A program made the translations under genes and the position numbers. Below, one piece after another: positions 1 to 24,504 of a stretch of 64,000 nt of DNA. The first letter of the stretch is position 1. Each line of letters opens with the position of its first letter. Below the pieces are notes generated by a model. That model saw nothing but the letters and a program-made list of their open reading frames with translations, made no database searches and had not been told where the DNA came from. Location: assembly GCF_051903065.1 (NCBI RefSeq), contig NZ_CP178438.1; one strand, written 5' to 3'. The stretch is from Escherichia coli (GTDB lineage Bacteria; Pseudomonadota; Gammaproteobacteria; Enterobacterales; Enterobacteriaceae).

Positions 1-438
1 GGCTAGGACAAAACGTTGATGAATCACCTCCACCAGGCGGATGGATTCACTATCAAGCCCCAGAGATTCACGGCGTTGCCAGACAGCATCTACCCGCGCG
101 AATAATTCACCGTTCAGATAGATATCATTAGCCAGTTCCGCCAGTTCAGCGGAAAACTGCTCGTCAAGACGCTGTAATTCATCATTGGTATGCGCCGCAG
201 TCATCGCAAAAAAGACGCTGGTAACGCGGGTAAGTAATTCTCCGCTTTGTTCCAGTGCCAGAATAGTATTGTTGAAATCAGGTGTTTGCGGGTTAAGCGC
301 GATGGCAGCAATTTCTGCCCGCTTTTGCAGCATTCCCTCATCGAATGCCGGGCGATAGTGATGATTGGCAATTTGATCAAAATGGGGAGCCAAATACGGC
401 AGTGTGCTTTGCACAAGGAAAGGATTCATTGTTGTCAT
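1..438 (-). CDS. dcp: peptidyl-dipeptidase Dcp (M3 family), N-terminal part; gene continues past window start
   Basis: Minus-strand frame from ATG at 436-438 reads MTTMNPFLVQSTLPYLAPHFDQIANHHYRPAFDEG... with no stop down to position 1; matches remembered Dcp N-terminus. Confidence 0.85.
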   Translation of the reverse strand, partial: MTTMNPFLVQSTLPYLAPHFDQIANHHYRPAFDEGMLQKRAEIAAIALNPQTPDFNNTILALEQSGELLTRVTSVFFAMTAAHTNDELQRLDEQFSAELAELANDIYLNGELFARVDAVWQRRESLGLDSESIRLVEVIHQRFVLA

Positions 439-574
439 TTTCTTCTCCTGAACGCGAGGTGTTCCATAGCGTAGGCTTACTGATAACGGAGTGCAATCTT
501 GCAAACCAGTATTACCCGCTCTTAAGCATCACGTGCTATGTTATTGACACACAAAAGCGTTGAGGAACAGTGAG

Positions 575-1321
575 ATGATCGTTTTAGTAACTGGAGCAAC
601 GGCAGGTTTTGGTGAATGCATTACTCGTCGTTTTATTCAACAAGGGCATAAAGTTATCGCCACTGGCCGTCGCCAGGAACGGTTGCAGGAGTTAAAAGAC
701 GAACTGGGAGATAATCTGTACATCGCCCAACTGGACGTTCGCAACCGCGCCGCTATTGAAGAGATGCTGGCATCGCTCCCTGCCGAGTGGAGCAATATTG
801 ATATCCTGGTAAACAATGCCGGCCTGGCGTTGGGCATGGAGCCTGCGCATAAAGCCAGCGTTGAAGACTGGGAAACGATGATTGATACAAACAACAAAGG
901 CCTGGTATATATGACGCGCGCCGTCTTACCGGGTATGGTTGAACGTAATCATGGTCATATTATTAACATTGGCTCAACGGCAGGTAGCTGGCCGTATGCC
1001 GGTGGTAACGTTTACGGTGCGACGAAAGCGTTTGTTCGTCAGTTTAGCCTGAATCTGCGTACGGACCTGCATGGTACGGCGGTGCGCGTCACCGACATCG
1101 AACCGGGTCTGGTGGGTGGCACCGAGTTTTCCAATGTCCGCTTTAAAGGCGATGACGGTAAAGCGGAAAAAACCTATCAAAATACCGTTGCATTGACGCC
1201 GGAAGATGTCAGCGAAGCCGTCTGGTGGGTGTCAACGCTGCCTGCTCACGTCAATATCAATACCCTGGAAATGATGCCGGTTACCCAAAGCTATGCCGGG
1301 CTGAATGTCCACCGTCAGTAA
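575..1321 (+). CDS. ydfG: NADP-dependent 3-hydroxy acid dehydrogenase (SDR family)
   Basis: ORF 560-1321; likely start at internal Met (MIVLVTGATAGFGE, Rossmann TGxxxGxG motif); 248 aa. Confidence 0.9.
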   Translation: MIVLVTGATAGFGECITRRFIQQGHKVIATGRRQERLQELKDELGDNLYIAQLDVRNRAAIEEMLASLPAEWSNIDILVNNAGLALGMEPAHKASVEDWETMIDTNNKGLVYMTRAVLPGMVERNHGHIINIGSTAGSWPYAGGNVYGATKAFVRQFSLNLRTDLHGTAVRVTDIEPGLVGGTEFSNVRFKGDDGKAEKTYQNTVALTPEDVSEAVWWVSTLPAHVNINTLEMMPVTQSYAGLNVHRQ

Positions 1322-1409
1322 TTTTTATACCCGGCGTAACTGCCGGGTTATTGCTTGTCACAAAAAAGTGGTAGACTCATGCAGTTAACTCACTCACAAG
1401 CAAGAACGA

Positions 1410-2096
1410 ATGACCGTCGAAACGCAACTTAATCCCACACAGCCTGTCAATCAGCAAATTTATCGTATCCTTCGTCGCGACATTGTCCATTGCCTGATTG
1501 CCCCAGGCACACCGTTGTCGGAAAAAGAAGTTTCTGTTCGTTTCAATGTGTCACGCCAGCCGGTTCGTGAAGCCTTTATTAAACTGGCGGAAAACGGCCT
1601 GATTCAAATTCGTCCGCAGCGTGGCAGCTACGTCAACAAAATTTCCATGGCCCAGGTGCGCAACGGCAGTTTTATCCGTCAGGCCATTGAGTGCGCGGTG
1701 GCGCGTCGGGCGGCGAGCATGATTACCGAAAGCCAGTGCTACCAACTGGAACAAAATCTTCACCAGCAACGCATTGCCATTGAGCGCAAGCAACTGGATG
1801 ATTTTTTTGAACTTGATGACAACTTCCATCAACTCCTGACGCAGATTGCCGACTGTCAACTGGCGTGGGATACCATTGAGAACCTGAAAGCGACCGTTGA
1901 TCGCGTGCGCTATATGAGTTTCGACCACGTTTCTCCACCAGAAATGCTGTTACGCCAGCATCTTGATATTTTCTCTGCCCTGCAAAAACGTGATGGCGAT
2001 GCGGTAGAACGTGCAATGACGCAACATTTGCAGGAAATCAGCGAATCCGTGCGCCAGATCCGTCAGGAAAACAGCGACTGGTTTAGCGAAGAGTAA
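1410..2096 (+). CDS. ydfH: GntR/FadR-family transcriptional regulator (RspR)
   Basis: 228-aa ORF with N-terminal winged-HTH GntR signature; position upstream of ydfZ as in K-12. Confidence 0.85.
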
Positions 2097-2272
2097 TTCA
2101 TTTCCTCTCATCCCATCCGGGGTGAGAGTCTTTTCCCCCGCCTTATGGCTCATGCATGCATCAAAAAAGATGTGAGCTTGATCAAAAACAAAAAATATTT
2201 CACTCGACAGGAGTATTTATATTGCGCCCGTTACGTGGGCTTCGACTGTAAATCAGAAAGGAGAAAACACCT

Positions 2273-2476
2273 ATGACGACCTACGATCGTAACCGTAACG
2301 CAATCACCACTGGCAGCCGTGTTATGGTTAGCGGCACCGGTCACACTGGCAAGATCCTGTCGATTGATACTGAAGGTCTGACCGCTGAGCAAATCCGCCG
2401 CGGAAAAACCGTAGTTGTTGAAGGTTGTGAAGAGAAACTGGCACCTCTGGACCTGATTCGTCTCGGCATGAACTAA
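2273..2476 (+). CDS. ydfZ: small protein YdfZ (putative selenium-binding)
   Basis: 67-aa [20 protein letters not shown]...; followed by hairpin terminator. Confidence 0.85.
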
Positions 2477-2483
2477 GCGTGTG

Positions 2484-2512
2484 AATGCCGCCGATGGCGG
2501 CATTGCTTTTTT
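2484..2512. terminator. Rho-independent terminator between convergent ydfZ and ydfI
   Basis: GC stem AATGCCGCC-GAT-GGCGGCATT followed by GCTTTTTT. Confidence 0.7.
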
Positions 2513-3971
2513 ACTTCACGGAATATTTCGCCACGGTCGCTTTCGCACCATGCGCTAATAAAAACAAGTACGCTTCCGTCACTTTTGCAGTAAACAAGCT
2601 ATTGTCTGGCAAATCATCACCAAAGATCGCCTTAATCGCCAGCAATGACTGGACGCGCGCTTTCCCTTCGGCACTACTTTGTACAGCCTTCTGAATAACA
2701 GGTAACAGTGGGTCACTGATTTCAATCGGATTTCCCTGTTCATCAACACCACCGACATAACGCATCCAACCCGCGACGCCCAGCGCCAGCAGATCGAACT
2801 TGCTGTCATGCGCCAGATGCCAGCGAACAGAATCCAACATCCGCTGTGGCAATTTCTGGCTGCCATCCATCGCAATCTGCCAGGTTCGATGGCGTAACGC
2901 CGGGTTGCTATAGCGTGCAATTAATCGGTTAGCGTAATCTTGCAAATCAACGCCCTGCACTTTCAGCGTCGGCGCTTGTTCCTGCAACATCAAGCCATAC
3001 GCCGCATGACGATAATGTTCATCTTCCATACAGTCATTAATGTGCTGATATCCGGCAAGATAACCCAGATACGCCAGGAATGAATGACTGCCGTTGAGCA
3101 TGCGCAACTTCATCTCTTCATAAGGCAGTACATCGCTAACCAGTTCTGCTCCCGCTTTTTCCCATTCCGGACGTCCGGCAACAAAATTATCTTCGATTAC
3201 CCACTGGCGGAAAGGTTCACAGGCAACGCCAGCAGGATCGCGCACACCGGTAAGTTGTTCGATTTTCGCCAGCGTATCCTCTGTCACTGCGGGCACAATA
3301 CGGTCCACCATTGTTGATGGGAAAGTCACGTTATCTTCGATCCATTGTGCCAGTTTTACATCAACGGCTTGCGCGTAGGAAGTGACAACGTCACGCATAA
3401 CATGACCGTTTTCTGGCATGTTGTCACATGACATGACGGTAAATGCGGGAAGTCCTGCCGCTTTACGGCGAGCCAGCGCCTCAACAATCACCCCTGTTGC
3501 TGTTTTCGGCTGGTGGGGATTTTGCACGTCGGCAACGACCATCGGGTGATCGAGCATTAACTGTCCGGTCGCCGGAGAGTGGAAATACCCTTTTTCGGTG
3601 ATTGTCAGAGAGACAATCGCGATTTGTGGTTCACACATCGCAGCCAACACGGTTTCTAAGCCATCTATCTGTACGTGCAAGGCTTTTTTAACGACGCCAA
3701 CGACGCGAGCCGTCCACGCATCGGCCGACATTTCCGCAACGGTATAAAGATTATCTTGCTGTTGTAAATCGGCAATTTGCTGTTCGCCACCGATTAAGTT
3801 GACCTCATAATATCCCCAGTCACTGAAATGTTCTGTAGCAAGAATATCGGCATACACGCCCTGATGCGCACGGTGAAATGCACCAAAGCCTAAATGAACA
3901 ATTCTTGGGGCCAGGTTATTACGATCATAAACAGGGAGTGTCGCTTTTGCTGATAACAAATTATTTCCCAT
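2511..3971 (-). CDS. ydfI: mannitol dehydrogenase-family oxidoreductase (mannonate/altronate oxidoreductase-like)
   Basis: 486-aa ORF; family assignment from overall similarity to UxuB-type proteins by memory. Confidence 0.85.
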
Positions 3972-4059
3972 AACAATTCCTTAAATTTAAATATGGCAAG
4001 CTACATGTTTTGTTATATGAAGAAAAATCCCCTCTCCGGTAAGAGAAGGGATTGAGGAT

Positions 4060-5343
4060 TTAAAGACTTCTGGAAGGTTGCGCAGCTCTTACAACACGCG
4101 GTTGATCTTCCGCAGCGTCTTCCAGCGCACTTAAATCACGGTCTTTCACTTCTGGCATTTTCAGCGCAGAGATTAAACCAATCACTGAATATGCCATGAT
4201 CATAATGGCGATTGGATACCAGGATTCCGTCATGGTGCAGAAAATACCCGCCAGGATAGGACCAAAACCGGAAGCGATAAGACCACCAATTTCTTTAGAA
4301 ATAGCCATCCGGGTAAAGCGGTTTTTACAGCCGAACATTTCTGCCATGGTAATGTTTTCCAGAGCAAATAATCCCAGCACCGCACAGTTATGAATCACAA
4401 TCAGTGCAACCATAATGGTGCTCGGGGCATAGCTTTTATCTACGATGATAGAAAGCATTGGCCATGCCAGCACAATCGCGGAGGTATTCATAATAATATA
4501 CGGGATCCGGCGACCAATTTTATCGGATAACCAACCAAGGAACGGAATGGTCATAAAGCCGAGAATCGAACTAATCATCAATGCATCTGTTGGAATTGCT
4601 TTGTTAAACAATAACGTCTGCACTAAATAGCCTGCAAGGAAAGTCTGAATTAACCCGGAGTTACCCGCCTGACCAAAACGCAGCCCTGTTGCCAGCCAGA
4701 AGGATTTGCTCTGGAACATGCTACCAGCAGGTGCAGGTTTTGCTGTCGGTTGGTTGCTGTCGTTAACCTTCTCAAAGACCGGGCTTTCTTTCAGATTCAT
4801 ACGCAACCAGATAGCAAAGACCATCACGACAACGCTCGCCAGGAACGGTATACGCCATCCCCACGCCAGCAGTTCCTCTTTACTGAGAATGAAGAACATA
4901 AAGGCCCAGATTGCCGTTGCGCTTAAGGTTCCGCAGTTAGTTCCCATAGCCACAAATGAGGAGATAATTCCGCGCTTACCTTTTGGCGCATATTCCGCCA
5001 GCATCGTACCGGCACCGGAAATTTCCGCACCTGCACCCAACCCCTGAATAATACGCAGCGTCACCAGCAAGATGGGTGCAAAAACACCAATCTGTGCATA
5101 GGTCGGTAACACACCAATTAAGGTGGTACAGATCCCCATCATGGTGATGGTAATAAAGAGCACTTTTTTACGCCCTATTCTGTCGCCCATTTTGCCGAAA
5201 ATAAATGCTCCGACAATACGCGCCACATAACCTGCACCGTAGGTTCCCATTGCCAGAATTAACGCCATTGCCGTTGATGATTCAGGAAAAAATATTTCAT
5301 GAAACACTAACGCTGCGCCGAGTGAATATAACTGGAAATCCAT
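4060..5343 (-). pseudogene. ydfJ: MFS transporter YdfJ (ProP-like), 3' portion; first ~28 codons displaced to 34966-35058 by prophage insertion
   Basis: 427-aa ORF starts MDFQLYSLGAALVF...; upstream N-terminal codons are found at the other prophage end; att core overlaps the ATG. Confidence 0.8.
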
Positions 5344-5345
5344 AA
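5335..5345. repeat. att core copy at left prophage junction (attL-like)
   Basis: GAAATCCATAA identical to 34966-34976; lies at the ydfJ fragment junction. Confidence 0.7.
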
Positions 5346-5946
5346 TTCACAGGTGTTTTTTCCCATCCTGTGGTTTCCTTGGCGTTTTCTAGGTTTTTTC
5401 AGATAGTTGCATTTTTTAAAAAGCATCCTAAGTTCGATCTCAGTGTCTATCTGGGGCCTATTTCTGTCCCATATATGCCCCAAAAAAACTCCCCAACAGA
5501 TAAGTAGTTTTTTCATGGATTTATGCGTAAAATCAAGAACGGCTGGAAATCATTCAATACTCACACTATCGAAAAATTTACCAGCCAACCGCAGCACGTT
5601 CTTGCATAAGGCGTGTCTGCGTTTTTTCAACTATTCAGATACATCACTCCCATCACAGTCATTCCTCCGCATCAAAGGCATATAGGCTATATCACCTTGA
5701 TATTTTTCTTTTTCAGATAAAAACTGTTATCTATGTATACTTTTAAACCCAATCCGTGTAGAGTCTCTGCATAAGATAGTTTGCAGTTGCCGCTTCAGCT
5801 TGCGCCATAAACCGCCTGATTTTTGCTGCCACCTGCTAGCATTCCTGTATACCTGAAACGACAATGTTTATCTACGAACTTTAAAAACACCCAAGATAAA
5901 AATTGTCAACTATATCATATATAACACATTACTAATTCGAGGCTAT

Positions 5947-6060
5947 ATGAACAGCATACTGATAATCACTTCTCTCCTTATCATATTCAGCATTTTTAGT
6001 CATGCCCTAATAAAATTAGGGATTGGCATATCCAATAACCCAGACAAAACCGATGTATAA
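5947..6060 (+). CDS. possible small hydrophobic protein (37 aa, one predicted TM helix)
   Basis: ATG preceded by GAGG; [37 protein letters not shown]; no homology check possible. Confidence 0.3.
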
Positions 6061-6095
6061 GTCAACATATCCTGAATCAGACATACAATATCGCA

Positions 6096-6362
6096 ATGAA
6101 AATCAATAATATTTTAAGGAATATCTTCATGAAATCAAAAGACACCCTAAAGTGGTTCCCTGCGCAGCTTCCTGAAGTAAGAATTATCCTAGGGGATGCT
6201 GTAGTGGAAGTAGCAAAACAGGGAAGACCTATTAATACCAGAACATTGCTTGATTACATTGAAGGAAACATAAAGAAAAAATCATGGCTGGATAACAAAG
6301 AATTATTACAAACAGCGATATCAGTTCTTAAAGACAACCAAAATTTAAATGGTAAAATGTAA
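6096..6362 (+). CDS. ydfK: prophage cold-shock-induced protein YdfK (YnaE paralog); true start may be internal Met at 6129
   Basis: 88-aa ORF containing MKSKDTLKWFPAQLPEVRIILGDAVVEVAKQGRP... Confidence 0.8.
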   Translation: MKINNILRNIFMKSKDTLKWFPAQLPEVRIILGDAVVEVAKQGRPINTRTLLDYIEGNIKKKSWLDNKELLQTAISVLKDNQNLNGKM

Positions 6363-6679
6363 TATAATAAACTTACTTTTTTATCATTTTTCCACTTTAA
6401 CAACATTTTTCTCCACTTTTCCACGTCCAAACAACTTGAAATCTGGTTAAAATAACACGCAACACTATTCTTCTTCCTTGAGTCCGCCCGGAACTCGAAA
6501 AACAAACCGAGTTAAAGCCATTTTTCACAAAATCGATTTTGGGTCTCACCAAAAATTACGGGGTTGCATACGCATTCGTTTATTTTCGAACGTGTACATA
6601 CAAATATGCACAAAAATAATCATAATTATTTTCTGAGATGCATTATGATATGAACACCAATTTCGAATAGAGTCTCACT

Positions 6680-7270
6680 ATGTCTCGAATTTTTGCTTAC
6701 TGTCGGATATCAACGCTGGATCAGACCACCGAAAATCAACGCCGGGAAATCGAAAGTGCAGGTTTTAAAATCAAACCTCAGCAAATAATCGAAGAACACA
6801 TTAGCGGCTCAGCAGCAACCAGTGAGCGTCCTGGTTTTAACCGGTTGCTTGCTCGCCTGAAATGTGGTGATCAATTGATTGTGACAAAACTGGATCGCCT
6901 TGGTTGTAATGCAATGGATATCAGGAAAACAGTGGAACAACTGACCGAAACAGGTATCAGAGTGCATTGCTTAGCATTGGGTGGCATTGACCTGACCAGT
7001 CCAACAGGAAAAATGATGATGCAAGTAATTTCAGCAGTCGCTGAATTTGAACGAGACCTTTTACTTGAACGCACTCATTCCGGGATAGTAAGAGCCCGCG
7101 GCGCAGGGAAACGTTTTGGTCGACCACCTGTGTTAAATGAAGAACAGAAACAGGTGGTATTCGAACGAATTAAGTCAGGTGTAAGTATAAGTGCCATTGC
7201 CCGGGAATTCAAAACCTCGCGGCAAACCATTTTAAGAGCCAAAGCAAAACTTCAGACACCTGACATATAA
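6680..7270 (+). CDS. pinQ: serine-recombinase DNA invertase Pin
   Basis: 196-aa [23 protein letters not shown]... (resolvase/invertase N-terminal catalytic Ser motif) with C-terminal HTH. Confidence 0.9.
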
Positions 7271-7367
7271 AAAATAATCTCGGTGTGAGATGCTTTACGT
7301 GTTCCAAGCCCCCTTCCTTGCCGTAAATGGAAAGATACATCTAATTATAGAATTTATATGTTTTACC

Positions 7368-7943
7368 CTACGGCAGTGCTGGCCATTCAATATCCTGTGC
7401 AGTTGACGTATCAACACGGTTCAGCAATACCCGATACTTTTTCCATGCTTCCAGCAACGAGATTTCTTCCTCCGTTGCAATTTCCAGATCTGCAGCATCC
7501 TGAAGCGGCGCAATATGCTCACTGGCTACCTGCATCAGGTTGTTTTTTGTTTCTTCCGCCTCCCGGATCCGGAACAGTTTTTCTGCTTCCGTATCCTTCA
7601 CCCAGGCTGTGCCGTTCCACTTCTGAAACTCCCCTTCCGGCGATAACCAGGTAACATTTTCCGGTAACGGACCGAGTTCAGAAATAAATAACGCGTCGCC
7701 GGAAGCCACGTCATAGACGGTTTTTCCCCGATGATCTTCAACGAGATGCCACGATGCCTCATCACTGTTGAAAACAGCCACGAAGCCTGCCGGAATATCT
7801 GGCGGTGCAATATCGGTACTGTTTGCTGGCAGACCTGTATGAGGCGGAATATATGCGTCACCTTCACCAATAAATTCATTAGTTCCGGCCAGCAGATTAT
7901 AAATTTTTATGGTCTGTGGTTGTTCACTCATTCTGAATGCCAT
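7368..7943 (-). CDS. tfaQ: tail fibre assembly protein
   Basis: 191-aa ORF immediately downstream of tail fibre gene; Tfa-family organisation. Confidence 0.85.
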
Positions 7944-9127
7944 TATGCAAGCCTCACAATATAGTTAAATGCGATGTTTTTGACGGTGTTTTCCGCGTTA
8001 CCAGCAGCGTTAACGGTGATGGTGTGTCCATGTGAACCAATCGCAACGGAGTGCGTATGAGCACCAATACCGACAGTATGTGCATGTGCGCCTGCGCTTG
8101 CAGCAGTGCCGGACAGCGAGTGGGTATGAGCACCATCTGATGATGTCTTCCCTGCATTACGAGTCTGGCCACTACCGCTTGTTGTGCTCATAATCCCCGC
8201 GCTTAGATTTGAAATCGCGGTATAACCATTAGGGAAAATGCTCGTGTTCGTGCCACCAAATGCACCGGAACTCTTGTGTTGGTGCGCACCGGCACTATTT
8301 GCAGTCCCGCTAATACTATGGGTATGCGCCCCGGTGTTATTCGTGGATTTGGTTCCGTAATCAAACGACGATGTGTTTTTCGTCCCCAAATCCGTACTGG
8401 ATGCGCTGGCGCTGTGGGTGTGCGATTTAATGCCGTCCTGTTCCTGAGACAATACGGCACGACCACTGGCGGGTTTGCCCTTAATCGTCCAGCCACGCAT
8501 ATCAGGGATCACGGCTGACGGATAAGCGGCTGCAAGTTTCGGGTATGCAGATTTGTCAAAAGTCTGCCCCTGCATCAGGGCATAGCCAGACGGAACGGTA
8601 TCTGATGGCCACGGGATTGGTGCGCCAGGCGGATAAAACTGCTCTGATGGCGTATAGAGTGAATAAACTGTACCGTCCGTTAACCCTTCCGGCTTATTAG
8701 CAGAATATGCTGGTGACGTATGAATCGTCACGCTGGCATTACTGGTATAATCCCATTGAATATTTACACCAGTCGCATAATTTCCGATTGCAACGTAAAT
8801 ATCGTAAGTATCACCAGATGTATTGACCCAGGCAAAATTTGTAAACCCTGTCGATGTGCGCTGCCATAAAGCACCAGTAATCCCCTTCGGATTACCATTA
8901 CCTGCACGCAAAACAAGTTCAGATATACCTGCCTGTTGAGGTGACCCCACGTTAAATCCCGCGCCACCAATCAACGTAATTGAAACAACAGAACTCGCCT
9001 GTGGCATGGTTACCGTTGCTAATTTGAACCAACCAGCACCACCGCTGAATGACATTGTTGTTGAGTTAAGCGTACCAATATCTTTCGGCGTCAGTGTTAT
9101 ATCCGCTGAAAGCGCCTTACCATTCAC
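7943..9127 (-). pseudogene. stfQ: side tail fibre protein fragment (C-terminal part lambda Stf-like with His-rich GAHxHS repeats); N-terminal/constant region absent
   Basis: 394-aa ORF; C-terminus ...GAPIPWPSD...GAHTHS...[18 protein letters not shown] resembles lambda Stf C-terminus; in-frame TGA immediately 5' of ATG and IS903 32 bp upstream. Confidence 0.75.
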
Positions 9128-9159
9128 CTTACGGGCAGAAGGTACCCGACCATTCGCAT

Positions 9160-10216
9160 GGCTTTGTTGAATAAATCGAACTTTTGCTGAGTTGAAGGAT
9201 CAGATCACGTATCTTCCCGACAACGCAGACCGTTCCGTGGCAAAGCAAAAGTTCAAAATCACCAACTGGCCCACCTACAATAAAGCCCTCATCAACCGTG
9301 GCTCCATAACTTTCTGGCTGGATGATGAAGCTATTCAGGCCTGGTATGAGTCAGCAACACCTTCTTCACGAGGCAGACCTCAGCGCTATTCTGACCTTGC
9401 CATCACGACTGTGCTGGTCATTAAACGCGTATTCAGGCTGACCCTGCGCGCTGCGCAGGGCTTTATTGATTCCATTTTTTCTCTGATGAACGTTCCGCTA
9501 CGCTGCCCGGATTACAGCTGTGTCAGCAGGCGGGCAAAGTCGGTTAATGTCAGTTTCAAAACGCCCACCCGGGGTGAAATCGCACACCTGGTAATTGATT
9601 CCACCGGGCTGAAGGTCTTCGGTGAAGGCGAGTGGAAAGTCAAAAAGCATGGCCAGGAACGCCGCCGTATCTGGCGTAAGCTGCATCTCGCCGTTGACAG
9701 TAAAACACATGAAATCATCTGCGCTGACCTGTCGCTGAACAACGTTACGGACTCAGAGGCCTTCCCCGGGTTAATCCGGCAAACCCACCGGAAAATCAGG
9801 TCAGCCGCCGCCGATGGCGCTTACGATACCCGGCTATGTCACGATGAACTGCGGCGTAAGAAAATCAGCGCGCTTATCCCTCCCCGAAAAGGTGCGGGTT
9901 ACTGGCCCGGTGAATATGCAGACCGTAACCGTGCAGTGGCTAATCAGCGAATGACCGGGAGTAATGCGCGGTGGAAATGGACAACAGATTACAACCGTCG
10001 CTCGATAGCGGAAACGGCGATGTACCGGGTAAAACAGCTGTTCGGGGGTTCACTGACACTGCGTGACTACGATGGTCAGGTTGCAGAGGCTATGGCCCTG
10101 GTACGAGCGCTGAACAAAATGACGAAAGCAGGTATGCCTGAAAGCGTGCGTATTGCCTGAAAACACAACCCGCTACGGGGGAGACTTACCCGAAATCTGA
10201 TTTATTCAACAAAGCC
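9160..10216 (+). mobile_element. IS903-like insertion sequence (IS5 family), 1057 bp
   Basis: 18-bp terminal inverted repeats GGCTTTGTTGAATAAATC at 9160-9177 and 10199-10216 (reverse complement); single transposase ORF; no 9-bp target duplication. Confidence 0.85.
9192..10160 (+). CDS. IS903-type DDE transposase
   Basis: 322-aa [55 protein letters not shown]...; recognised as IS903/IS102-type by memory. Confidence 0.85.
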
Positions 10217-11317
10217 TTTATGACCTAAAAGAAGTTCGACAATATAAGGATCCGCCCCCATATCATTAAGCGTAGTGGAAAATGTGCGCCTGAAATCATG
10301 TATGCACCACAAGCCATTAGTATCATGACCAAGACACCTGCATATTCTGTTTGCAGCCCCTGTTATTGTCGCCCTTTGCAAAGCACAACCGACAACATAA
10401 CCGCGATTTTTTGTTTCTGCGTAAAGATTAACGATCCATTGTTTTATTCCGTCAGGAACAGGCCTTACTATAGCCTCCTTGTTTTTGCTGTGCTCTTTTG
10501 GGACTGTCCATACCCAGTTTTTTAAATCCCATTCGTCCCAGGTGGATAGCCTCGCCTCCTGCTGTCGGCAACCAAACACCAGGCAGATAACCATTATTCT
10601 TCGGTTATATATTGATGACAGAGTTAGCAAATTATTACCGTAAGCATAAGACCATACATCAGCGGTTTCATTGATATTAAGAACGCGATCCCTTATACCG
10701 GATGAGCGCCCGACATAACTTACGTTAATATCTCCAAAGGGATCGCACGCGATGTATTGCCTGACGCGACAAAAACGCAACGCCTGTTTGATATCAAGAA
10801 AAATTGCACCAGACATAACAGGCGCATTTTTTTTGATCCTGTCAAAGACGGTAAGCCATGTGTGTAATTTGCACTGTTCTATAGCCATATCACCGATATA
10901 GGGGAAGATATGCTTTTCAAATCGTTTTATTAAATATTCATGCTCTTTTCTGGCTGTTGTGGCGTGATTGTCGTACCAGTAAAACAGCGCATCCCTTACG
11001 GTCACTGGTTGCATAGTTTTTTCGGCAGCAAGTTTTATTTGCCTGCGGGGGTCCAGATTTTCAGCCAGCCATTCACGGCACTGATCACGCATGCGCCTGG
11101 CCGTTGCAAGAGACATGTCAGGATAGCGACCAAGTGTAAGCCATACCGGAGGGGATTCCCTGCCACCAAGACGATAGTAAAAAACAAAGCTGATCCCCCC
11201 AACCATGCTTACACGCACAGACAACCCGCGCCCATCCGCTATTGTTTTTTGTTTGTCCTGCCGTTTTCCGACAAGACTCTTTAACAGTTTGTCACTGAGT
11301 TTGTTTTCAATAGCCAT
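10202..11317 (-). pseudogene. P4-family tyrosine integrase, C-terminally truncated by IS903 (catalytic Tyr region missing)
   Basis: 371-aa ORF with HDFRRT and LLGH core motifs; reading frame ends FVE-stop inside the IS903 inverted repeat. Confidence 0.75.
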
Positions 11318-11335
11318 TAAAAGCCCTCAAGAGAT

Positions 11336-11389
11336 TTGCAATACACACCCATCCCGATCGCCAATTTGCAATACACATTGCAATACACA
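11336..11389. repeat. three direct copies of 12-bp motif TTGCAATACACA upstream of integrase start
   Basis: Copies at 11336-11347, 11366-11377, 11378-11389; 19-72 bp upstream of the int ATG (minus strand). Confidence 0.7.
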
Positions 11390-11465
11390 AAACCGCGAAA
11401 AACTGGAAGGGTGATGAACGGTCATCAAAAGCATGGAAAACGACATTCCAGACGCAGCAAGGGTT

Positions 11466-14446
<2,981 letters not shown>

Positions 14447-14472
<26 letters not shown>

Positions 14473-14992
14473 TCAGCAACCCCGGTATCAGTTCATCCAG
14501 CGCGGCTGCTTTGTTCATGGCTTTGATGATATCCCGTTTCAGGAAATCAACATGTCGGTTTTCCAGTTCCGGAAAACGCCGCTGCACCGACAGGGGGATC
14601 CCGTCGAGAATACTGGCAATTTCACCTGCGATCCGCGACAGCACGAAAGTACAGAATGCGGTTTCCACCACTTCAGCGGAGTCTCTGGCATTTTTCAGCT
14701 CCTGTGCGTCGGCCTGCGCACGCGTAAGTCGATGGCGTTCGTACTCAATAGTCCCTGGCTGGAGATCTGTCTCGCTGGCCTGCCGCAGTTCTTCAACTTC
14801 CCGGCGCAGCTTTTCGTTCTCAATTTCAGCATCCCTTTCGGCATACCATCTTATAACGGCGGCAGAGTCATAAAGCACCTCATTACCCTTGCCACCGCCT
14901 CGCAGAACGGGCATTCCCTGTTCCTGCCAGTTCTGAATGGTACGGATACTCGCACCGAAAATGTCAGCCAGCTGCTTTTTGTTGACTTCCAT
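14447..14992 (-). CDS. lambda-like terminase small subunit Nu1 (NohA-type)
   Basis: 181-aa ORF MEVNKKQLADIFGASIRTIQNWQEQGMPVLRGGGKGNEVLYDSAAV... Confidence 0.9.
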
Positions 14993-15215
14993 TGTTCATT
15001 CCACGGCCAAAAACAGAGAAAGGAAACGACAGAGGCCCAAAAGCTCGTTTTCAGCACCTGTCGTTTCCTTTCTTTTCAGAGGGTATTTTAAATAAAAACA
15101 TCAAGTTACGACGAAGAAGAACGGAAACGCCTTAAACCGGAAAATTTTCATAAATAGCGAAAACCCGCGAGGTCGCCGCCCCGTAACCTGTCGGATCGCC
15201 GGAAAGGACCCGCAA
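14993..15215 (-). other. lambda-type cos site (cosB, cosN and probable cosQ)
   Basis: Reverse complement reads ...CAGGTTACG GGGCGGCGACCT CGCGGGTTTTCGCTATTTATGAAAATTTTCCGGTTTAAGGCG...; 12-nt cohesive-end sequence at 15170-15181; matches lambda cos from memory. Confidence 0.8.
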
Positions 15216-15380
15216 AATGATAATAATTATCATCTGCATGTCACAACGTGCATCTACGCCATCAAACCACGTCAAATAATCAATTATGACGCAGATATCG
15301 TATTAATTGATCTGCATCAACTTAACGTAAAAACAACTTCAGACAATACAAATCAGCGACACTGAATACGGGACAACCTC

Positions 15381-15614
15381 ATGTCAACGAAGAACAGAAC
15401 CCGCAGAACAACAACCCGCAACATCCGCTTTCCTAACCAAATGATTGAACAAATTAACATCGCTCTTGAGCAAAAAGGGTCCGGGAATTTCTCAGCCTGG
15501 GTCATTGAAGCCTGCCGCCGGAGACTGTGCTCAGAAAAAAGAGTTTCTTCTGAAGCAAACAAAGAAAAGAGTGACATTACTGAATTGCTCAGAAAACAGG
15601 TCAGACCAGATTGA
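15381..15614 (+). CDS. ynfO: prophage small protein YnfO
   Basis: 77-aa ORF, position between cos and ydfO. Confidence 0.65.
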   Translation: MSTKNRTRRTTTRNIRFPNQMIEQINIALEQKGSGNFSAWVIEACRRRLCSEKRVSSEANKEKSDITELLRKQVRPD

Positions 15615-15656
15615 AGCAATTTAGATAATCGTGCAGACTACGCCCCCTCATATCAC

Positions 15657-16082
15657 ATGGAAGGTTTATCTATGGATCAGGTAGTCATTTTTAAACAAAT
15701 ATTTGATAAAGTTCGAAACGATTTAAACTATCAATGGTTTTATTCTGAGCTAAAACGTCACAATGTCTCACATTACATTTACTATTTAGCCACAGAGAAT
15801 GTTCATATTGTATTAAAAAATGATAATACAGTGTTATTAAAGGGCCTAAAAAACATTGTGTCTGTCAAATTTTCAAAGGATAGGCATCTTATAGAAACGA
15901 CCTCTAATAAGCTGAAATCCAGAGAGATCACATTTCAGGAATACAGAAGAAACCTTGCTAAAGCAGGAGTTTTTCGGTGGGTTACAAATATCCACGAACA
16001 AAAAAGATATTACTATACCTTTGATAATTCATTACTATTTACTGAAAGCATCCAGAAAACTACACAGATCTTACCACGCTAA
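15657..16082 (+). CDS. ydfO: prophage protein YdfO (DUF1398 family)
   Basis: 141-aa ORF; position as in K-12 Qin. Confidence 0.75.
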
Positions 16083-16233
16083 ACCATAACGTCCGGCTTC
16101 TCTCACTCCTGAGCCGGACTGCATTGGTTTAATAAAAACCATCAACAATTGTGATTTAGATATTCGGAACCATTCAAATATAACAAAACCCCGTAAAAAC
16201 GAGGTTTATGGATAAATTTTATTATTGAATACA

Positions 16234-16407
16234 TCAGATTAAATTAATCTTGACATCATAGCTTTCAAGACCCGTCATTTTTTCCCGTGCGGTAAACTGA
16301 ATACTGGTAACTTCTTTCCCGGTCTTTTTCTTAAGTTCAATAATTTTTTTTGTTATATATTCAGAAATATCTGCTTCTGCTTTTGTTTTTAAGTTTTCAA
16401 TATTCAT
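16234..16407 (-). CDS. gnsB: GnsB (suppressor of secG/fabA phenotypes), 57 aa
   Basis: Hand translation of minus strand: MNIENLKTKAEADISEYITKKIIELKKKTGKEVTSIQFTAREKMTGLESYDVKINLI; not in supplied ORF list (below length cut-off). Confidence 0.8.
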   Translation of the reverse strand: MNIENLKTKAEADISEYITKKIIELKKKTGKEVTSIQFTAREKMTGLESYDVKINLI

Positions 16408-16578
16408 CATTTCCTCTTTTAGTCTGTTATGACTTTCCAGTTACACAGTAAGTCGATTATATGGTGCAAACGTGTAAAAGATAAGATGAAACATCGCAAT
16501 AATCAACATACGATAGTCTAAATTTTACACAAACAGACAAAGAGAATTTTCCTGAATTATCAATGCAATAGCATCAAA

Positions 16579-16809
16579 TCAACTCAAGAGCCTTATTGCT
16601 GCTTCCAGAATTTCTTCTGAAGTAACATGTCGATCCGCGGCTACATAAATGACTTTATGATCTCCGGTCAGAGATGGAAACCCTGCGGCCATTACAGTAA
16701 GGTGTGTTTTTTCGCCATTTGGATATTCACGCATGATGGTGTTAACTCCAGTCATCGCTGGCACTACCACTGCTGGTTCAGAGTTAAAAAAAACTATGAT
16801 TTTTTTCAT
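16579..16809 (-). CDS. ynfN: prophage small protein YnfN
   Basis: ORF 16579-16851; likely start at MKKIIVFFNSEPAVVVP... Confidence 0.65.
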   Translation of the reverse strand: MKKIIVFFNSEPAVVVPAMTGVNTIMREYPNGEKTHLTVMAAGFPSLTGDHKVIYVAADRHVTSEEILEAAIRLLS

Positions 16810-17080
16810 GATGTTACCGTAGTATGTGAGTATCCATCGAATAGACACCAAGCAAAAAAGCTCCCGAAGGAGCCTTCATTTTCACTTTTTTAAATCCAAC
16901 GACAGACGGCTGGCATTTAAGTATTGTGAAATATTATCAAATGTAATCATCATTGATTTACAAAAGATACATTTTGCCCCGAAAGGATTCATGTCAGAAA
17001 CATCAAAAGATGATGTTCTATACTGGGAACCATGACAACACGGGCATCTAAAGTGAATATGGTTTGTAATATTGTCTACC

Positions 17081-17293
17081 TCAAAGCGCCACTACATGAA
17101 CAGCGGCAGGACCTTTAGGTCCGTTCTCAATACCAAATTCAACTTCCTGATTCTCAGTTAATGTTTTGAAATCGTTGCTCTGAATTGCTGAGAAATGGAC
17201 AAACACATCTTTGCTGCCATCTTTCGGCGTGATGAAACCAAAACCTTTTTCAGGGTTAAACCATTTCACTAAACCAGTCATTTTGTTAGACAT
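17081..17293 (-). CDS. cspI: cold shock protein CspI (CspA family)
   Basis: 70-aa [26 protein letters not shown]... cold-shock domain RNP motifs. Confidence 0.9.
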
Positions 17294-17655
17294 AATTATT
17301 ACCTTTTGAAGAAATTAGCCCTTGGGCAGAATGGTCCGAAAAAAAATATCAGAGAGAAAAACCAACAAGGAAATCTCAAGAGGTACAAATAATAAAATTA
17401 TAACAATGACTGCTTCAGATAAATTTGTAACAAACCAGAACACCATTAACGCATGATTAACCACCCATAGCAAGGATTACTTTTGTAAAGAAAAACACAG
17501 CAATGAAAGAATAGCTTTATTTATTAATAAAACGTGTCATTCTGATTAAGACCTTTTATCTTACCCTTAAGATTTCAGGAATTTTGGCTCATGGAAGAGT
17601 CCTTTTTATTTAAATTTTACATTCCGCGATGTAAATGTTCCGATTTAATATTACC

Positions 17656-18679
<1,024 letters not shown>

Positions 18680-18683
<4 letters not shown>

Positions 18684-18991
18684 AGATATTTATGATGAGG
18701 ACGCTCGTGCTTATTGGCAGGATTTTCAATCTTAAAGGAGTACTGATGCTGCAGATAAGACTCAACTTTTTCTGACAATTTTTCTGCTACTTCCAGGAAG
18801 ACTTGCCGGACGCTCCTTCTGGCTGCTGCCTCATAAAACTCCAGCGCAGCTCCTTCAACACGGTCCATGGCGACATCCAGGTCAAAAATTTCACCGTCAA
18901 AGCGTTCTTTGTCCTGTAAGGCTACAGTTACCGTAACTTTATTCTCAAAATTACGGACTCCTTTCACAACCAGTTCATAGTCTTGAGTCAT
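18680..18991 (-). CDS. ydfR: prophage protein YdfR
   Basis: 103-aa ORF between holin and lysozyme genes. Confidence 0.7.
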
Positions 18992-18995
18992 TGGA

Positions 18996-19211
18996 TTACT
19001 CTCCTCTCGCAGCCTTACGCCTGTCTTCTTTAATCTTGAAATAAAGATTTGTCAGATACGTCAGCAGGCAAAAAACCAGGCTACCCAGCACACCGATTGC
19101 AGCCCACTGTGACGGAGTTACTTTATCGAGTAACTGCAATGCCCAGAAACCAGCATTACCCGCCGATGTGCCATAGGCAACACCTGTTGTTAACTTATCC
19201 ATTGATTTCAT
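18996..19211 (-). CDS. essQ: holin (S-like)
   Basis: ORF 18996-19286; likely start [28 protein letters not shown]... with TM segment. Confidence 0.75.
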
Positions 19212-19429
19212 ATCCTCACCCCGATGTACACGGATGGTGCAATATGTTTGAAAAGATCGGAGTCTACGGGGTAGTTTTGACAGCACACGTTGTTCTCAAC
19301 GGCGCTAAAAAACATACACATTAAAAATGTGGGTAATTATTTTGAAAGAAAATCATATATAAAATAATAATACGAGAAATGTTTTCATATTTAGTGTACT
19401 GTATACGGCCATTTATACAGGAAATGCCT

Positions 19430-19600
19430 ATGTCAGAACGTAAAGACTCAAAATCACGCCGTAATTATCTCGTTAAATGTTCCTGCCCAAACTGCACCCA
19501 AGAGTCAGAACACAGTTTTTCAAGAGTACAAAAAGGTGCCCTTTTGATCTGCCCTCATTGCAACAAAGTATTCCAGACAAATCTTAAAGCTGTAGCCTGA
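19430..19600 (+). CDS. small zinc-ribbon protein (56 aa, CxxC...CxxC); possibly the K-12 small protein YnfU
   Basis: ATG at 19430 with AGGA upstream; MSERKDSKSRRNYLVKCSCPNCTQESEHSFSRVQKGALLICPHCNKVFQTNLKAVA. Confidence 0.55.
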   Translation: MSERKDSKSRRNYLVKCSCPNCTQESEHSFSRVQKGALLICPHCNKVFQTNLKAVA

Positions 19601-19963
19601 TTGATTTTATTAGTAACAAGTATTTTTTATATTTTAATAATATATTTAAAGCAGATAATAAAAAACCCGCCTGAGCGGGTTTGAGATTGTGGTGCTTTTT
19701 GTGGGAGTCATCCACTTACGCACTTTGTTTTGCGATGCCAGCAGTTAGCTTCTGCTGTGAAACTATTCATGCAGCAAACCTGCACTTCACCACAATGGTT
19801 AGCATACTTTTCCTGATTAAGATTTTGCCAAATATGCTGGCCATTGTTTCATGTATTGGACCTCCTTACTTTTTATTAAAGAGATCCAATATTCACTACT
19901 CTGTCCGTATCTCTACTCAGGCATCAGCCTTCTTCGTTATCGTATACAGACGAGCGATGAATT

Positions 19964-20179
19964 TTAATCAGTAATGATGACATTTACTGCTGCAGGACCT
20001 TTAGCACCACTCTCTATAGAGAAGGTAACCTTTTGACCTTCAAATAAGGTTCGATAATTATCATTCTGAATCGCAGAAAAATGCACAAACACATCTTTAC
20101 TACCATCAACAGGAGAAATAAAGCCGAAACCTTTATCAGCGTTAAACCATTTTACTAAACCAGTCATTTTATTTGACAT
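19964..20179 (-). CDS. cspB: cold shock protein CspB
   Basis: 71-aa [26 protein letters not shown]... Confidence 0.9.
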
Positions 20180-20489
20180 TCTACATTCCTTAACTTGAGC
20201 CTTTCGGCATAAATGGTTTGCATAACAGAAACGACTTCGTACTTAATTGGAGAGACTCAAAGAAGGAATAAGTGAATAACACCTGAAATGAGAACTGCTT
20301 TAGTAAACTACTTCGTATATCGTCTGTTCTTCAAACCGACGCAGTCATTAACTCATAGTTGAACATATGAAGCAATGTTTATTTTAGACATCCAGCCACC
20401 TTCAATCCTATCAAAAAAGTAGTTTTCTCCAGGAACGTGTGTATGGTGCACCAGGTTATCAGTATTAAGGAGTTTTTCTGTCCCCTAAA

Positions 20490-20690
20490 ATGACAGGAAT
20501 TGTCAAAAACTTTGACGGCAAAAGCGGCAAGGGTCTTATCACCCCATCCGATGGTCGTATCGATGTCCAGCTTCATGTTTCAGCGCTCAATCTCCGCGAT
20601 GCAGAAGAAATTACCACCGGATTACGCGTGGAATTTTACCGGATAAATGGTCTGCGTGGCCCTTCAGCTGCCAATGTTTACCTTTCATGA
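20490..20690 (+). CDS. cspF: cold shock protein CspF (start may lie slightly upstream at a non-ATG codon)
   Basis: 66-aa [39 protein letters not shown]... Confidence 0.8.
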
Positions 20691-20744
20691 GCTATATTAA
20701 AGCTTTAATTTCAGGCCCCATCGGATCACACATGGAGAGTTTTT

Positions 20745-20834
20745 ATGAATAACCCCGTCTGTCTTGATGACTGGTTGATTGGCTTTAAAATCTTATGCTG
20801 TACTTTGGCCGTAATAGCTCTGCTAATAATATAA
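20745..20834 (+). CDS. possible tiny hydrophobic protein (29 aa)
   Basis: GGAGAG 6 nt upstream of ATG; [29 protein letters not shown]. Confidence 0.3.
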
Positions 20835-20983
20835 TAAGCAGACTCATTGTGTTTAGGGACATTGTACTGGAAGAAAACATTTTAAACATCAGGCAAATAA
20901 CCAAGTCACCAGCTAAATAATAAGTTAACAGACATGAGTCCCGGGATGAGATTCAACATTACCATTGCCCCATTTAAAGCACA

Positions 20984-21015
20984 AAACCCGCTCATCAGCG
21001 GGTTTTCTACTTTTT
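20984..21015. terminator. bidirectional hairpin terminator between cspF and quuQ
   Basis: AAAACCCGCTCATCAGCGGGTTTT stem-loop flanked by T/A runs on both strands. Confidence 0.6.
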
Positions 21016-21111
21016 CTTAACGTCGGGTATACAAAGCCCATCGTTGAAAAAATTTTATCCATATTTTTTGAAAAATGCAAACATCATGTCGCCATCTTCA
21101 GCAAAAATCAT

Positions 21112-21864
21112 TTATCTCGTCACCTTCCTCAATTGCGCTTCCGCGTATGCTTCTTCCTGCCAGCACTTTGTTACCAGTTTACCAATGACGTCCGCATACC
21201 CCTTATACCACTGATAATCGGTCAGGTCTGGTACCAGCTTCTGGACATGACGTCGTGCCAGCGTGGTCGGTAAACGACTAAACCGGTTTCCATTACAACG
21301 CCCACAAATCTTATATACCGGTACGCCATGAAACCGGGTTCTTTTTTCATCCAGAACAATCCCTTTACCCTTACACCCTCTGCACGCTGTGCTGGCTTCG
21401 CCCTTACCATGGCAATGCTGACATAGTTCCTTCACCCATTCTTCCTTGATTACAGATTCCCCGCGTCTGTAGTGTTTCACCACTTCGCGCAATACATTAT
21501 AAAATCCCGTACCTGAACAATGCTCACAGCGAGCCTTACTTGCCGCAGACCTGGAGTAATCAGCAAAGGCAAAACTCACGAGGTAAGGAATAATCTGTAA
21601 CCGGATTTCTTCACTCAATTTGTTCAATGTCGGGTTATCCAGTGCCATCGCGTAATTTAGCAGGCCTTCAATCGCAAACTGAGGGTCCTGAACACCAACT
21701 TTTGCCAGAAATAAGGCCAACCCAAGTGGTGCTTTCGACTGCACCATCCCCTGCGCTGCCATTACATCCGTAATTGTTAAACAACCGGTGCCTGTCGCTG
21801 GAGCGTCATCGCTCAATTTTGGAGATTTTGGGGAGTAATATTTTGGTAAGGCTTCAAGGTTCAT
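21112..21864 (-). CDS. quuQ: lambdoid late-gene antiterminator Q-like
   Basis: ORF 21112-21894; Cys-rich zinc-binding motifs (CxxC); upstream of lysis cassette. Confidence 0.8.
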   Translation of the reverse strand: MNLEALPKYYSPKSPKLSDDAPATGTGCLTITDVMAAQGMVQSKAPLGLALFLAKVGVQDPQFAIEGLLNYAMALDNPTLNKLSEEIRLQIIPYLVSFAFADYSRSAASKARCEHCSGTGFYNVLREVVKHYRRGESVIKEEWVKELCQHCHGKGEASTACRGCKGKGIVLDEKRTRFHGVPVYKICGRCNGNRFSRLPTTLARRHVQKLVPDLTDYQWYKGYADVIGKLVTKCWQEEAYAEAQLRKVTR

Positions 21865-21877
21865 GCTCGTTCTCCAC

Positions 21878-22966
21878 TTACGCCAGTACGCCAATTGCCA
21901 GCGCGCGATCGATAAAACGAAATATCAGCTCCAGTTGGGAGCCATACTTATCTTCAAATGCCACTGTATCCGTATGCAGCTCGTTGTGATGCTTTCTGCA
22001 CAAAGGCAACACAAAGAGATCATGTGCTTTTGTTCCCATTCCGCCCTGCCCGTGACCAATCAGATGATGCGGATCGTCGGCTGGCATACCGCAGCAAGCA
22101 CACGGCTGTGTCTTAACCCAACGTGTGTATTTCTCCTTAACCCAGCGGCGACGTTTAGGCAGCTTCATGAAAGATTCCGGAGACTCTGGATCAACGGTGA
22201 TGCTTACCACCGTCTTTTCCTGTGGTGATTTTTGTTGCTGGTGGGCGTAAGGCAACGGTGCAAGATTTTTTGTGCGTTGTTTCAATATGCTGGTGGCGGT
22301 CTGCTCTCCCGGTACGATGTCGCTTTCGCGGTACACCGAGCAGATTTTTTCCGCTGGTAATCCCAGCGAACGACGCGATACAGCCTCAGGTAGTGCATCC
22401 ACCACCTGATTGCAGACCGCCCACCAGGATAATTCAGCCAAAGATAATTCCCGCTCCTGCGTACCGCTTATTGCGTGACGGATGACGTCAATCACCCATG
22501 CTGTCAGATTTTGTTGAGCAAGCAGCTCCAGTGATTCCGATGTCTGGTCACGCAGTTGGTTGTCGCAGTGCCAGCACAACACCATTGCGCCGGTACCATA
22601 ACGGTGAATGACTGTTTCAGTGTGATGGTAATCGCCATTAGGCCACTGGCAGGATGTAACATGACGTAATAGCCAGTCGGACAATGCGCCAACGCCGCCA
22701 GCAGCACGAATCACCCGTTCGTTACTAAAAAACGGCAGCAATGTTTTGTCTTCCGCCAGCGGCTGGCGAACGGCAGGAACGACTCCGGATGGCAGATTAC
22801 GCATGCTTTTTGGTTCCGGTTCCACCAGCACTCGAGGATTATGAAATATCTGTATGGATTCACGGCCCGGCTTAAGGACCACCAGCCCAAGCTCAGGCAC
22901 CAGAACAGGTCTAAGTAATACCCGCACGTTACCTCCAGATCCGTTGCTGGAAAGTGCGGGACGCAC
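21878..22966 (-). CDS. ydfU: prophage protein YdfU with C-terminal HNH-type motif
   Basis: 362-aa ORF; C-terminal CACCGMPADDPHHLIGHGQGGMGTKAHD...CRKHHNELH. Confidence 0.75.
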   Translation of the reverse strand: MRPALSSNGSGGNVRVLLRPVLVPELGLVVLKPGRESIQIFHNPRVLVEPEPKSMRNLPSGVVPAVRQPLAEDKTLLPFFSNERVIRAAGGVGALSDWLLRHVTSCQWPNGDYHHTETVIHRYGTGAMVLCWHCDNQLRDQTSESLELLAQQNLTAWVIDVIRHAISGTQERELSLAELSWWAVCNQVVDALPEAVSRRSLGLPAEKICSVYRESDIVPGEQTATSILKQRTKNLAPLPYAHQQQKSPQEKTVVSITVDPESPESFMKLPKRRRWVKEKYTRWVKTQPCACCGMPADDPHHLIGHGQGGMGTKAHDLFVLPLCRKHHNELHTDTVAFEDKYGSQLELIFRFIDRALAIGVLA

Positions 22967-23207: not shown

Positions 23208-23273
23208 CGGTTTTCTCCGGTGGCACGGTGTTACTCAGCGGGAGTTCAGCCCCGCGCAAGATTGTAGATGAGT

Positions 23274-24495: not shown

Positions 24496-24504
24496 GTCTT
24501 ACAC

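Follow-up and report, generated by a model that had tools for sequence, protein, structure and literature searches.

The prophage Qin of Escherichia coli K-12 lies between ydfJ and rspB, and its stfQ' is joined to nohA' by what we take to be an older, IS-free deletion. The satellites known as E. coli PICIs, of which the EcCICFT073 type is a named example, carry int, alpA, a D5-type primase gene, genes for an E-like capsid protein and a D-like decoration protein, and a Nu1-like homologue of the small terminase. The insertion sequence IS903B is 1057 bp in length, with perfect 18-bp terminal repeats and a single ORF for a DDE transposase. Adjacent deletions are common for IS903, where they require both ends of the element and proceed via a cointegrate (PMC11708052). 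IS-mediated adjacent deletions of this kind, described for IS903, IS1 and IS150, including IS150 in the Lenski lines, leave the IS termini intact, remove the flanking DNA and show no target-site duplication, and successive or nested deletions out of a resident copy are known there too (PMC11708052). Together with recombination between IS copies, adjacent deletion is the usual cause of a missing duplication (PMC11708052).

Here we describe a stretch of 64 kb of E. coli DNA, referred to as the window, in which an intact and ordinary copy of IS903B marks an IS-associated deletion scar in a defective lambdoid prophage of the Qin type. The element, the mechanism and the Qin host locus are all already known, and nothing at the locus departs from known behaviour. 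By comparison with annotated relatives, the locus lies between ydfJ and rspB, in the interval of the Qin prophage, and by the RefSeq annotation of the sister genomes this is the same chromosomal site as that of Qin in K-12. The two prophages also share the gene set ydfK, pinQ, tfaQ, stf, nohA, ynfO, ydfO, gnsB, cspI, rzpQ, rrrQ, essQ and cspB, and so on to dicA, dicB and intQ'. In contrast to K-12 Qin, the window prophage retains the terminase A gene, W, the 5' part of the portal gene, a satellite remnant and IS903B. The features around the element are listed in Table 1.

Table 1. Features at and around the IS903B copy, in window coordinates.
Feature	Position	Strand	Basis or remark
Pin-type invertase gene	6680-7270	-	ORF list, Pfam
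Tail-fibre assembly gene	7368-7943	-	ORF list, Pfam
stf 3' fragment (side tail-fibre gene), codons 584-987 of 987	7943-9159	-	Translation match, Pfam Collar and Phage_fiber
Left flank CATTCGCAT	9151-9159		Left deletion junction at 9159/9160
IS903B, complete, 1057 bp (IS5 family, IS903 group)	9160-10216	+	100% identity to annotated copies
Left terminal inverted repeat GGCTTTGTTGAATAAATC	9160-9177	+	Sequence, repeat search, pattern search
IS903B transposase ORF, 322 codons from TTG, intact	9192-10160	+	ORF list, Pfam
Right terminal inverted repeat	10199-10216	-	Exact reverse complement of left repeat
Right flank TTTATGACC	10217-10225		Right deletion junction at 10216/10217
Tyrosine integrase gene of putative PICI-type satellite, 3'-truncated	10217-11317	-	Pfam Arm-DNA-bind_3 and Phage_integrase
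Putative satellite end, int upstream region and portal junction	11318-11525	-	Repeats, att core, portal homology
Portal gene B 5' fragment, lambda-type, of Qin-type prophage, satellite-interrupted	11518-12347	-	Pfam Phage_portal_2

The element is identical over all 1057 bp (100%) to plasmid copies annotated as 'IS5-like element IS903B', which rules out an element other than IS903. Matching plasmids numbered more than 5,000 records, and at least 1,566 of these, counted among the best-scoring 5,000, were ≥99% identical. The terminal repeat occurs in exactly two perfect copies in the 64 kb, against a chance level of 0.09 matches at ≤3 mismatches (mean of the shuffled sequences; largest value 2), and the repeat search extended its arms to 33 nt at 79% complementarity. 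The transposase is encoded by a single uninterrupted ORF that contains the Pfam domains DDE_Tnp_1_5 (E = 3e-40) and DDE_Tnp_1 (E = 7e-33) and that agrees in coordinates and length with the RefSeq IS903B transposase CDS of an identical copy in E. coli 23CRST027. Judged by its sequence, the element is IS903B itself and apparently functional. It has the length, the perfect repeats, the single transposase ORF and the sequence of IS903B and deviates solely in the missing duplication, its flanks being deletion junctions and the element itself being unchanged.

The initial annotation had described an IS903-like element of 1057 bp, bounded by perfect 18-bp repeats and flanked by two different 9-bp sequences. 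The repeats can be read directly at the two ends of the element, the assignment can be narrowed to IS903B, and the flanks do differ, with CATTCGCAT on the left and TTTATGACC on the right. These two sequences are unrelated in any register, so that the 9-bp duplication is absent at this copy. A coordinate error or a hidden duplication was rejected, as the flanks differ in every register and a shift by 1 bp creates no duplication. In 23CRST027, one IS903B copy located in a satellite is flanked on both sides by a perfect 9-bp duplication, CTCTGAATC, and CCAGAATGG is duplicated around a second copy, which is frameshifted and 99.9% identical. Because the copies in 23CRST027 are flanked by duplications, the missing duplication is a property of the window locus and not of the element. 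Each of the two junctions is new, and the two 9-bp flanks are therefore unrelated to each other.

The genome of 23CRST027 (NZ_AP045789.1) displays the undeleted arrangement. It is 100% identical to the window over positions 1-9159, over the element (9160-10216) and over positions 10216-29742, and has 3 mismatches over positions 29733-61507. The order of genes at its Qin site is ydfJ', ydfK, pinQ, tfaQ, stf (987 aa), lom, J, tail and head genes, the 3' part of the portal gene, an insert of 11.85 kb, the 5' part of the portal gene, W, A and nohA. In the coordinates of this reference locus (L006), positions 1-9159 of the window correspond to 9189-18347 at 100% identity, and the next reference base does not belong to an IS. 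On the other side, the window from 10216/10217 onward corresponds to the reference from 46645/46646 onward, again at 100%. Between the window break points 18347 and 46646 lies the satellite IS903B of 23CRST027 (42737-43793), identical in sequence to the window copy and in the same orientation.

The comparison thus places the missing DNA on both sides of the element: 24,389 bp are missing on the left (18348-42736) and 2,852 bp on the right (43794-46645), each junction coinciding with the outermost base of an IS inverted repeat. Lost with the first 583 codons of stf were lom and all head and tail genes (18 tail and head genes in addition to the 5' part of stf), the 3' part of the portal gene and almost all of the satellite. 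The scar explains the lack of head and tail genes in this Qin-type prophage. No part of the missing 27 kb was found elsewhere in the 64-kb window.

The stf fragment represents the 3' 41% of the gene, and its translation matches the last 404 of the 987 aa encoded by stf in 23CRST027. Exact matches to the full-length protein are widespread in public assemblies, so the truncated stf is the derived state. The integrase fragment keeps codons 1-367 of 413, identical to the first 367 aa of the full-length protein; its ORF reads through 4 IS codons to a stop at 10202, and the lost segment (VKGVAGVYNKSRH...) includes the catalytic Tyr. Upstream of int, TTGCAATACACA repeats are located at 11334-11389, and the core shared by the satellite and the portal gene, about ATCGCCTT, is located at 11518-11525. 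Homology to the portal gene in about 3,180 genomes begins at position 11513. The portal fragment matches positions 2-242 of the 354 in the Phage_portal_2 profile (E = 7e-64) and is annotated as a pseudogene in the sister genomes. To the right of it follow gpW, terminase A and nohA, and the remnant of Qin's own integrase is located about 24 kb further to the right of the satellite int remnant.

Comparison with related prophages, as proposed in the initial annotation, has thus revealed 27.2 kb between the two break points in 23CRST027. The suggestion that stf had lost its 5' part and int its 3' end is borne out by the same genome, and the loss turns out to be much larger. What had been called an integrase remnant is indeed a truncated integrase gene, but its owner is the nested satellite and not the prophage, which makes it unfit for defining the ends of the prophage. 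The two ORFs that adjoin IS903B, stf and int, are dead fragments. Of the two events considered earlier, an adjacent deletion or an inversion, the deletion is upheld by the 27.2 kb that is missing at the ends of the IS and the inversion is contradicted by the collinearity of the flanks.

Inversion is a possible outcome of intramolecular transposition and would leave a second IS903B copy elsewhere with the reciprocal flanks TATCATTAG... and ...CTTTCAC. It would also flip one of the flanks, yet both keep the order and orientation seen in 23CRST027, and for this reason we conclude that the rearrangement was a deletion. A pattern search for a second IS903 copy with reciprocal flanks, which had been proposed as a check, yielded none within the 64-kb window, nor any second IS903 end. 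The sequence at 630-647 was considered as such an end and rejected, as it has 3 mismatches, resembles the IS over these 18 bp only and is a match at chance level. Taken together, this leaves a negligible probability for an inversion.

The positions of the junctions also bear on whether the scar could be an artefact of assembly, in which two IS903B copies were collapsed and the 27 kb between them skipped, or a capture of the IS at a double-strand break. IS repeats are classic points of mis-joining, and for an IS5-family element of E. coli C an origin by capture at a break has been put forward (PMC11708052); moreover, the stf break point is located 10-12 bp from a site of recurrent IS-independent deletions in other genomes. 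However, both junctions coincide with the exact IS termini, a hallmark of transposase chemistry, and the skipped DNA is present nowhere else in the 64-kb window. The same IS|int' junction occurs in an independent assembly, GCA_036912935.1, which matches the window at 100% over 11.2 kb, and this argues against a mis-join. We regard an origin by mis-assembly or break capture as very improbable.

The 11.85-kb insert (including the IS) that separates the two portal halves in 23CRST027 contains a satellite of about 10.8 kb. Its genes code for an integrase, AlpA, a Bro-N protein, an Icd-like protein, a D5-type primase, SSB, an E-like capsid protein, a D-like decoration protein, a second AlpA-like protein and a Nu1-like protein; Pfam matches in the 23CRST027 copy were to Phage_AlpA, Bro-N, D5_N, Phage_cap_E, HDPD and Phage_Nu1. 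No tail or lysis genes were found in the 23CRST027 insert. By this gene content we classify the insert as a putative phage satellite of the PICI type, whose integration site in the portal gene is a common core of about AAGGCGAT. As judged on the intact 23CRST027 copy, the satellite has the gene content expected of a PICI and falls close to the expected size of about 10-15 kb. Int, alpA, the D5-type primase, the E-like capsid protein, the D-like decoration protein and the Nu1-like small-terminase homologue are all common to this satellite and E. coli PICIs. It differs from them in being located in a prophage portal gene rather than at a chromosomal site. The IS903B copy of 23CRST027 is inserted between the primase gene and a gene for a DUF4222 protein, the latter being cut by the insertion. 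The window keeps just the truncated int and about 200 bp next to the att site.

The duplication-flanked IS903B of 23CRST027 lies between the two break points of the window, and the simplest explanation is therefore that two deletions occurred, one from each end of the IS. Neither of the window junctions equals the CTCTGAATC junctions, so that either two events or another route is needed. In the route that we favour, the ancestor would have carried the PICI-type satellite of about 10.8 kb in the portal gene of the prophage, and IS903B would have entered it between the primase and DUF4222 genes, duplicating CTCTGAATC. The resident copy would then have gone through two rounds of intramolecular replicative transposition of the cointegrate type. 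In each round, the IS would attack a nearby site on the same molecule, with loss of the DNA in between and joining of the IS terminus to a new flank. The rightward event would have removed 2,852 bp, ending within the 3' end of the satellite integrase gene at a favourable target for IS903, and the leftward event 24,389 bp, ending in the middle of stf. Under this scheme the window lineage would descend from the CTCTGAATC insertion, the transposase and not RecA would have made the junctions, and the events would have followed in the order given. We consider two adjacent deletions somewhat more probable than any other origin taken singly or jointly. The case differs from the known adjacent deletions in that the IS is changed on both sides relative to the nearest reference.

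The distribution of the satellite insertion among sequenced genomes is consistent with such a precursor. Just two genomes in a collection of 5,426 complete ones of E. coli, 23CRST027 and 23CRST031, contained the IS junction at the satellite site. At least 8 contigs encode a protein identical to the 63-aa product of the cut DUF4222 gene, and of the 4 that were compared with 23CRST027, 3 were identical at 100% and 1 at 99.86%. One contig of 25,906 bp, from GCA_002941455.1, appears unbroken from the satellite IS to an IS1 at the end of the prophage. Its extent implies the genotype with the IS in the satellite and an intact gene O, which is the expected precursor. This contig is 2,848 bp longer than its 23,058-bp equivalent in GCA_036912935.1, which has the window genotype, and the difference matches the right-hand deletion. 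The exact-protein matches to junction-marker ORFs lie on short-read contigs that break off within the IS and support only reasoning of this kind, from the extent of the contigs; the 394-aa stf ORF is an unspecific marker that is also called in DLP12-type loci. Single-deletion intermediates, primase|IS|int' and stf'|IS|DUF4222', were absent from the 5,426 complete E. coli genomes.

Gene O of 23CRST027 contains an additional IS903B, the frameshifted copy flanked by CCAGAATGG, and gene O is intact in the window. Because this copy is absent from the window, 23CRST027 is a sister and not an ancestor, and it follows that the satellite insertion could post-date the split of the two lineages. The ancestor would then have lacked the satellite IS, and a fresh IS903B insertion in the 3' end of int, duplicating TTTATGACC, could have been followed by a single leftward deletion of about 27.2 kb. 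This corresponds to the single-event picture of the initial annotation. Simple insertions are the commoner type of event, and 14 of the 83 IS events in the LTEE were associated with deletions (PMC11708052). IS903B has furthermore been active in the clone, as seen from the new gene-O copy in 23CRST027, the int site suits IS903 well as a target (7/10 or 8/10, see below), and an IS903B at the same place of int in strain LCP30S3_I3 suggests a recurrent insertion hot spot. However, junction queries against the 5,426 complete E. coli genomes identified no simple IS insertion in int or in stf, and in the one further genome that has an IS|int' junction, the 3' end of int is likewise missing on the other side of the IS. 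The 4.9-Mb sister genome contains about 20 near-identical IS903B copies, from which we estimate a chance of about 5% that an unrelated copy would fall within the 27-kb interval in the right orientation; the IS that 23CRST027 carries there, in the same orientation, would have to be such a coincidence. An int insertion followed by one deletion is therefore possible but rather unlikely.

The abundance of near-identical copies, about 20 in this genome family, is also the basis for a third route, in which RecA-dependent recombination between IS903B copies in direct repeat, with extra copies in stf and/or int, left a single hybrid IS. Recombination between IS copies is a listed reason for the loss of duplications (PMC11708052), and its product cannot be told from that of an adjacent deletion by sequence. 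It would require more events, namely two extra insertions in the same orientation and one or two crossovers, and none of the 5,426 complete genomes contains a duplication-flanked IS903B in stf or int. We consider this route improbable, more so than an int insertion with a subsequent deletion. The final sequence is identical under two adjacent deletions, an insertion plus a deletion, and IS-IS recombination. The significance of the locus is slight beyond annotation, where it offers a clean natural case of a prophage and its nested satellite being eroded by IS903B, for which a near-isogenic reference exists. 23CRST027 and 23CRST031, GCA_002941455.1 and GCA_036912935.1 could form a small natural series for the formation of IS903B deletions.

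We also compared the sites with the IS903 target motif, WTTYA-N9-TRAAW (PMC2577343, Table 1, citing Hu and Derbyshire). The int site, with TTTATGACC as the duplicated sequence followed by TAAAA, a perfect right half-site, scored 7/10, which is within the top 2.3% of the positions in the region, and the register 1 bp to the left scored 8/10 (top 0.5%). The satellite insertion site scored 5/10, which is not exceptional. The stf site scored only 3/10, the commonest score in the region, and the target motif was accordingly rejected as an explanation for the position of the break in stf. Independent break points are clustered within 20 bp in stf. A crossover site of the Pin/Din invertases was considered as the source of this cluster and discarded, since TTCNNNNAAACCNNGGTTTNNNNGAA had no match anywhere in the window at ≤3 mismatches.

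The junction queries against the 5,426 complete genomes matched only two strains, LCP30S3_I3 at the right junction and CP53 at a different stf junction. In LCP30S3_I3, a pig isolate, IS903B is located at the same position of int with a different left flank. Its IS allele has 3 SNPs relative to the window copy, two of them within 160 bp of the junction, and the junction in its different int allele has an apparent extra C, or an offset of 1 bp, for which a homopolymer error in the assembly is a possible reason. Common descent of the two IS|int' junctions is disfavoured by the IS SNPs, the int alleles and the extra C. On these sequence differences, the data suggest that the int insertions in the window and in LCP30S3_I3 may represent independent use of a hot spot. 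The IS903B copy of LCP30S3_I3 adjoins a deletion and has no duplication, and copies without a duplication also abut other Qin deletions in CP53 (stf|IS|hokD) and NT1F34 (DUF1441|IS|intQ'), which indicates recurrent erosion of the prophage and is in line with adjacent deletion in the window. It is conceivable, if doubtful, that int is a true hot spot and that IS903B repeatedly disarms the satellite and the prophage by nested deletions, possibly under selection, or else that the copies without a duplication were captured at breaks. In all, different deletions at the Qin locus adjoin IS903B in four strains.

The truncated integrase to the right of IS903B is part of a PICI-type satellite of roughly 10.8 kb, of which an intact copy is present in the near-identical sister genome 23CRST027. 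The gene content of the satellite comprises int, alpA, Bro-N, D5 primase, SSB, an E-like capsid gene, a D-like decoration gene and a Nu1-like gene. Within the prophage, the satellite is integrated in gene B, the lambda-type portal gene, and splits it at ...AIVKA/MYAAT... with a core of about AAGGCGAT. Among 5,426 complete genomes of E. coli, 63 carry this satellite-portal junction, which is found in prophages of both the Qin type (23CRST027) and the DLP12 type (EC93). In the region immediately upstream of int, TTGCAATACACA occurs three times in close succession (window 11334-11389), and a fourth copy is located at the opposite end of the satellite in its intact form (L006 36158-36171). The repeats are plausibly arm-type binding sites of the integrase.

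Coordinates of the features, in the window unless stated otherwise
Feature	Location	Strand	Remark
Satellite remnant	10217-11525		truncated int and satellite end
Intact satellite copy	L006 36091-47942		23CRST027
stf break point 1			IS903B junction of the window
stf break point 2			IS903B junction of strain CP53, 18 bp off; stf allele about 85% identical across the junction region
stf break point 3			terminase-A::stf fusions, DLP12-type loci
stf break point 4			J::stf fusion, a Qin locus
Replication gene O	29596-30558	minus	intact, prophage
IS1A	about 33072-34928		mapped from L007 21565-23421

The junction between IS903B and the truncated integrase gene (window 10216/10217) is shared with the pig isolate LCP30S3_I3 (L001 10058/10059), in which the IS allele differs by 3 SNPs from that of the window, the left flank is unlike that of the window and the junction contains one additional C. 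This offset could be a homopolymer sequencing error. Since 7-8 of 10 positions agree with the IS903 target motif WTTYA-N9-TRAAW, the site is probably a hot spot for insertions or deletions.

On the other side of the element, four independent break points in stf fall inside about 20 bp (window 9120-9159, codons about 584-595). Those of the terminase-A::stf and J::stf fusions are located at TACC/GGTACC microhomology, 10-12 bp from the junction in the window. A search for a Din/Pin crossover site yielded no match to account for the cluster. For the exact 394-aa stf ORF, 271 blocks are listed in the public assembly collection.

IS903B has been mobile recently in this clone, since gene O is intact in the window whereas in the otherwise near-identical 23CRST027 it contains a second IS903B, itself frameshifted, with the target-site duplication CCAGAATGG. 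At window 630-647, an 18-bp segment (GCCCTTGTTGAATAAAAC) differs from the inverted repeat of IS903 at 3 positions; no IS similarity was found outside it, and a single match of this kind lies within chance expectation.

A further IS-associated truncation within the same prophage involves an IS1A, positioned by coordinate transfer from the sister genome (99.99% identity), at the Qin integrase. The adjoining integrase is N-terminally truncated and is located beside rspB; dicB is also cut by IS1A.
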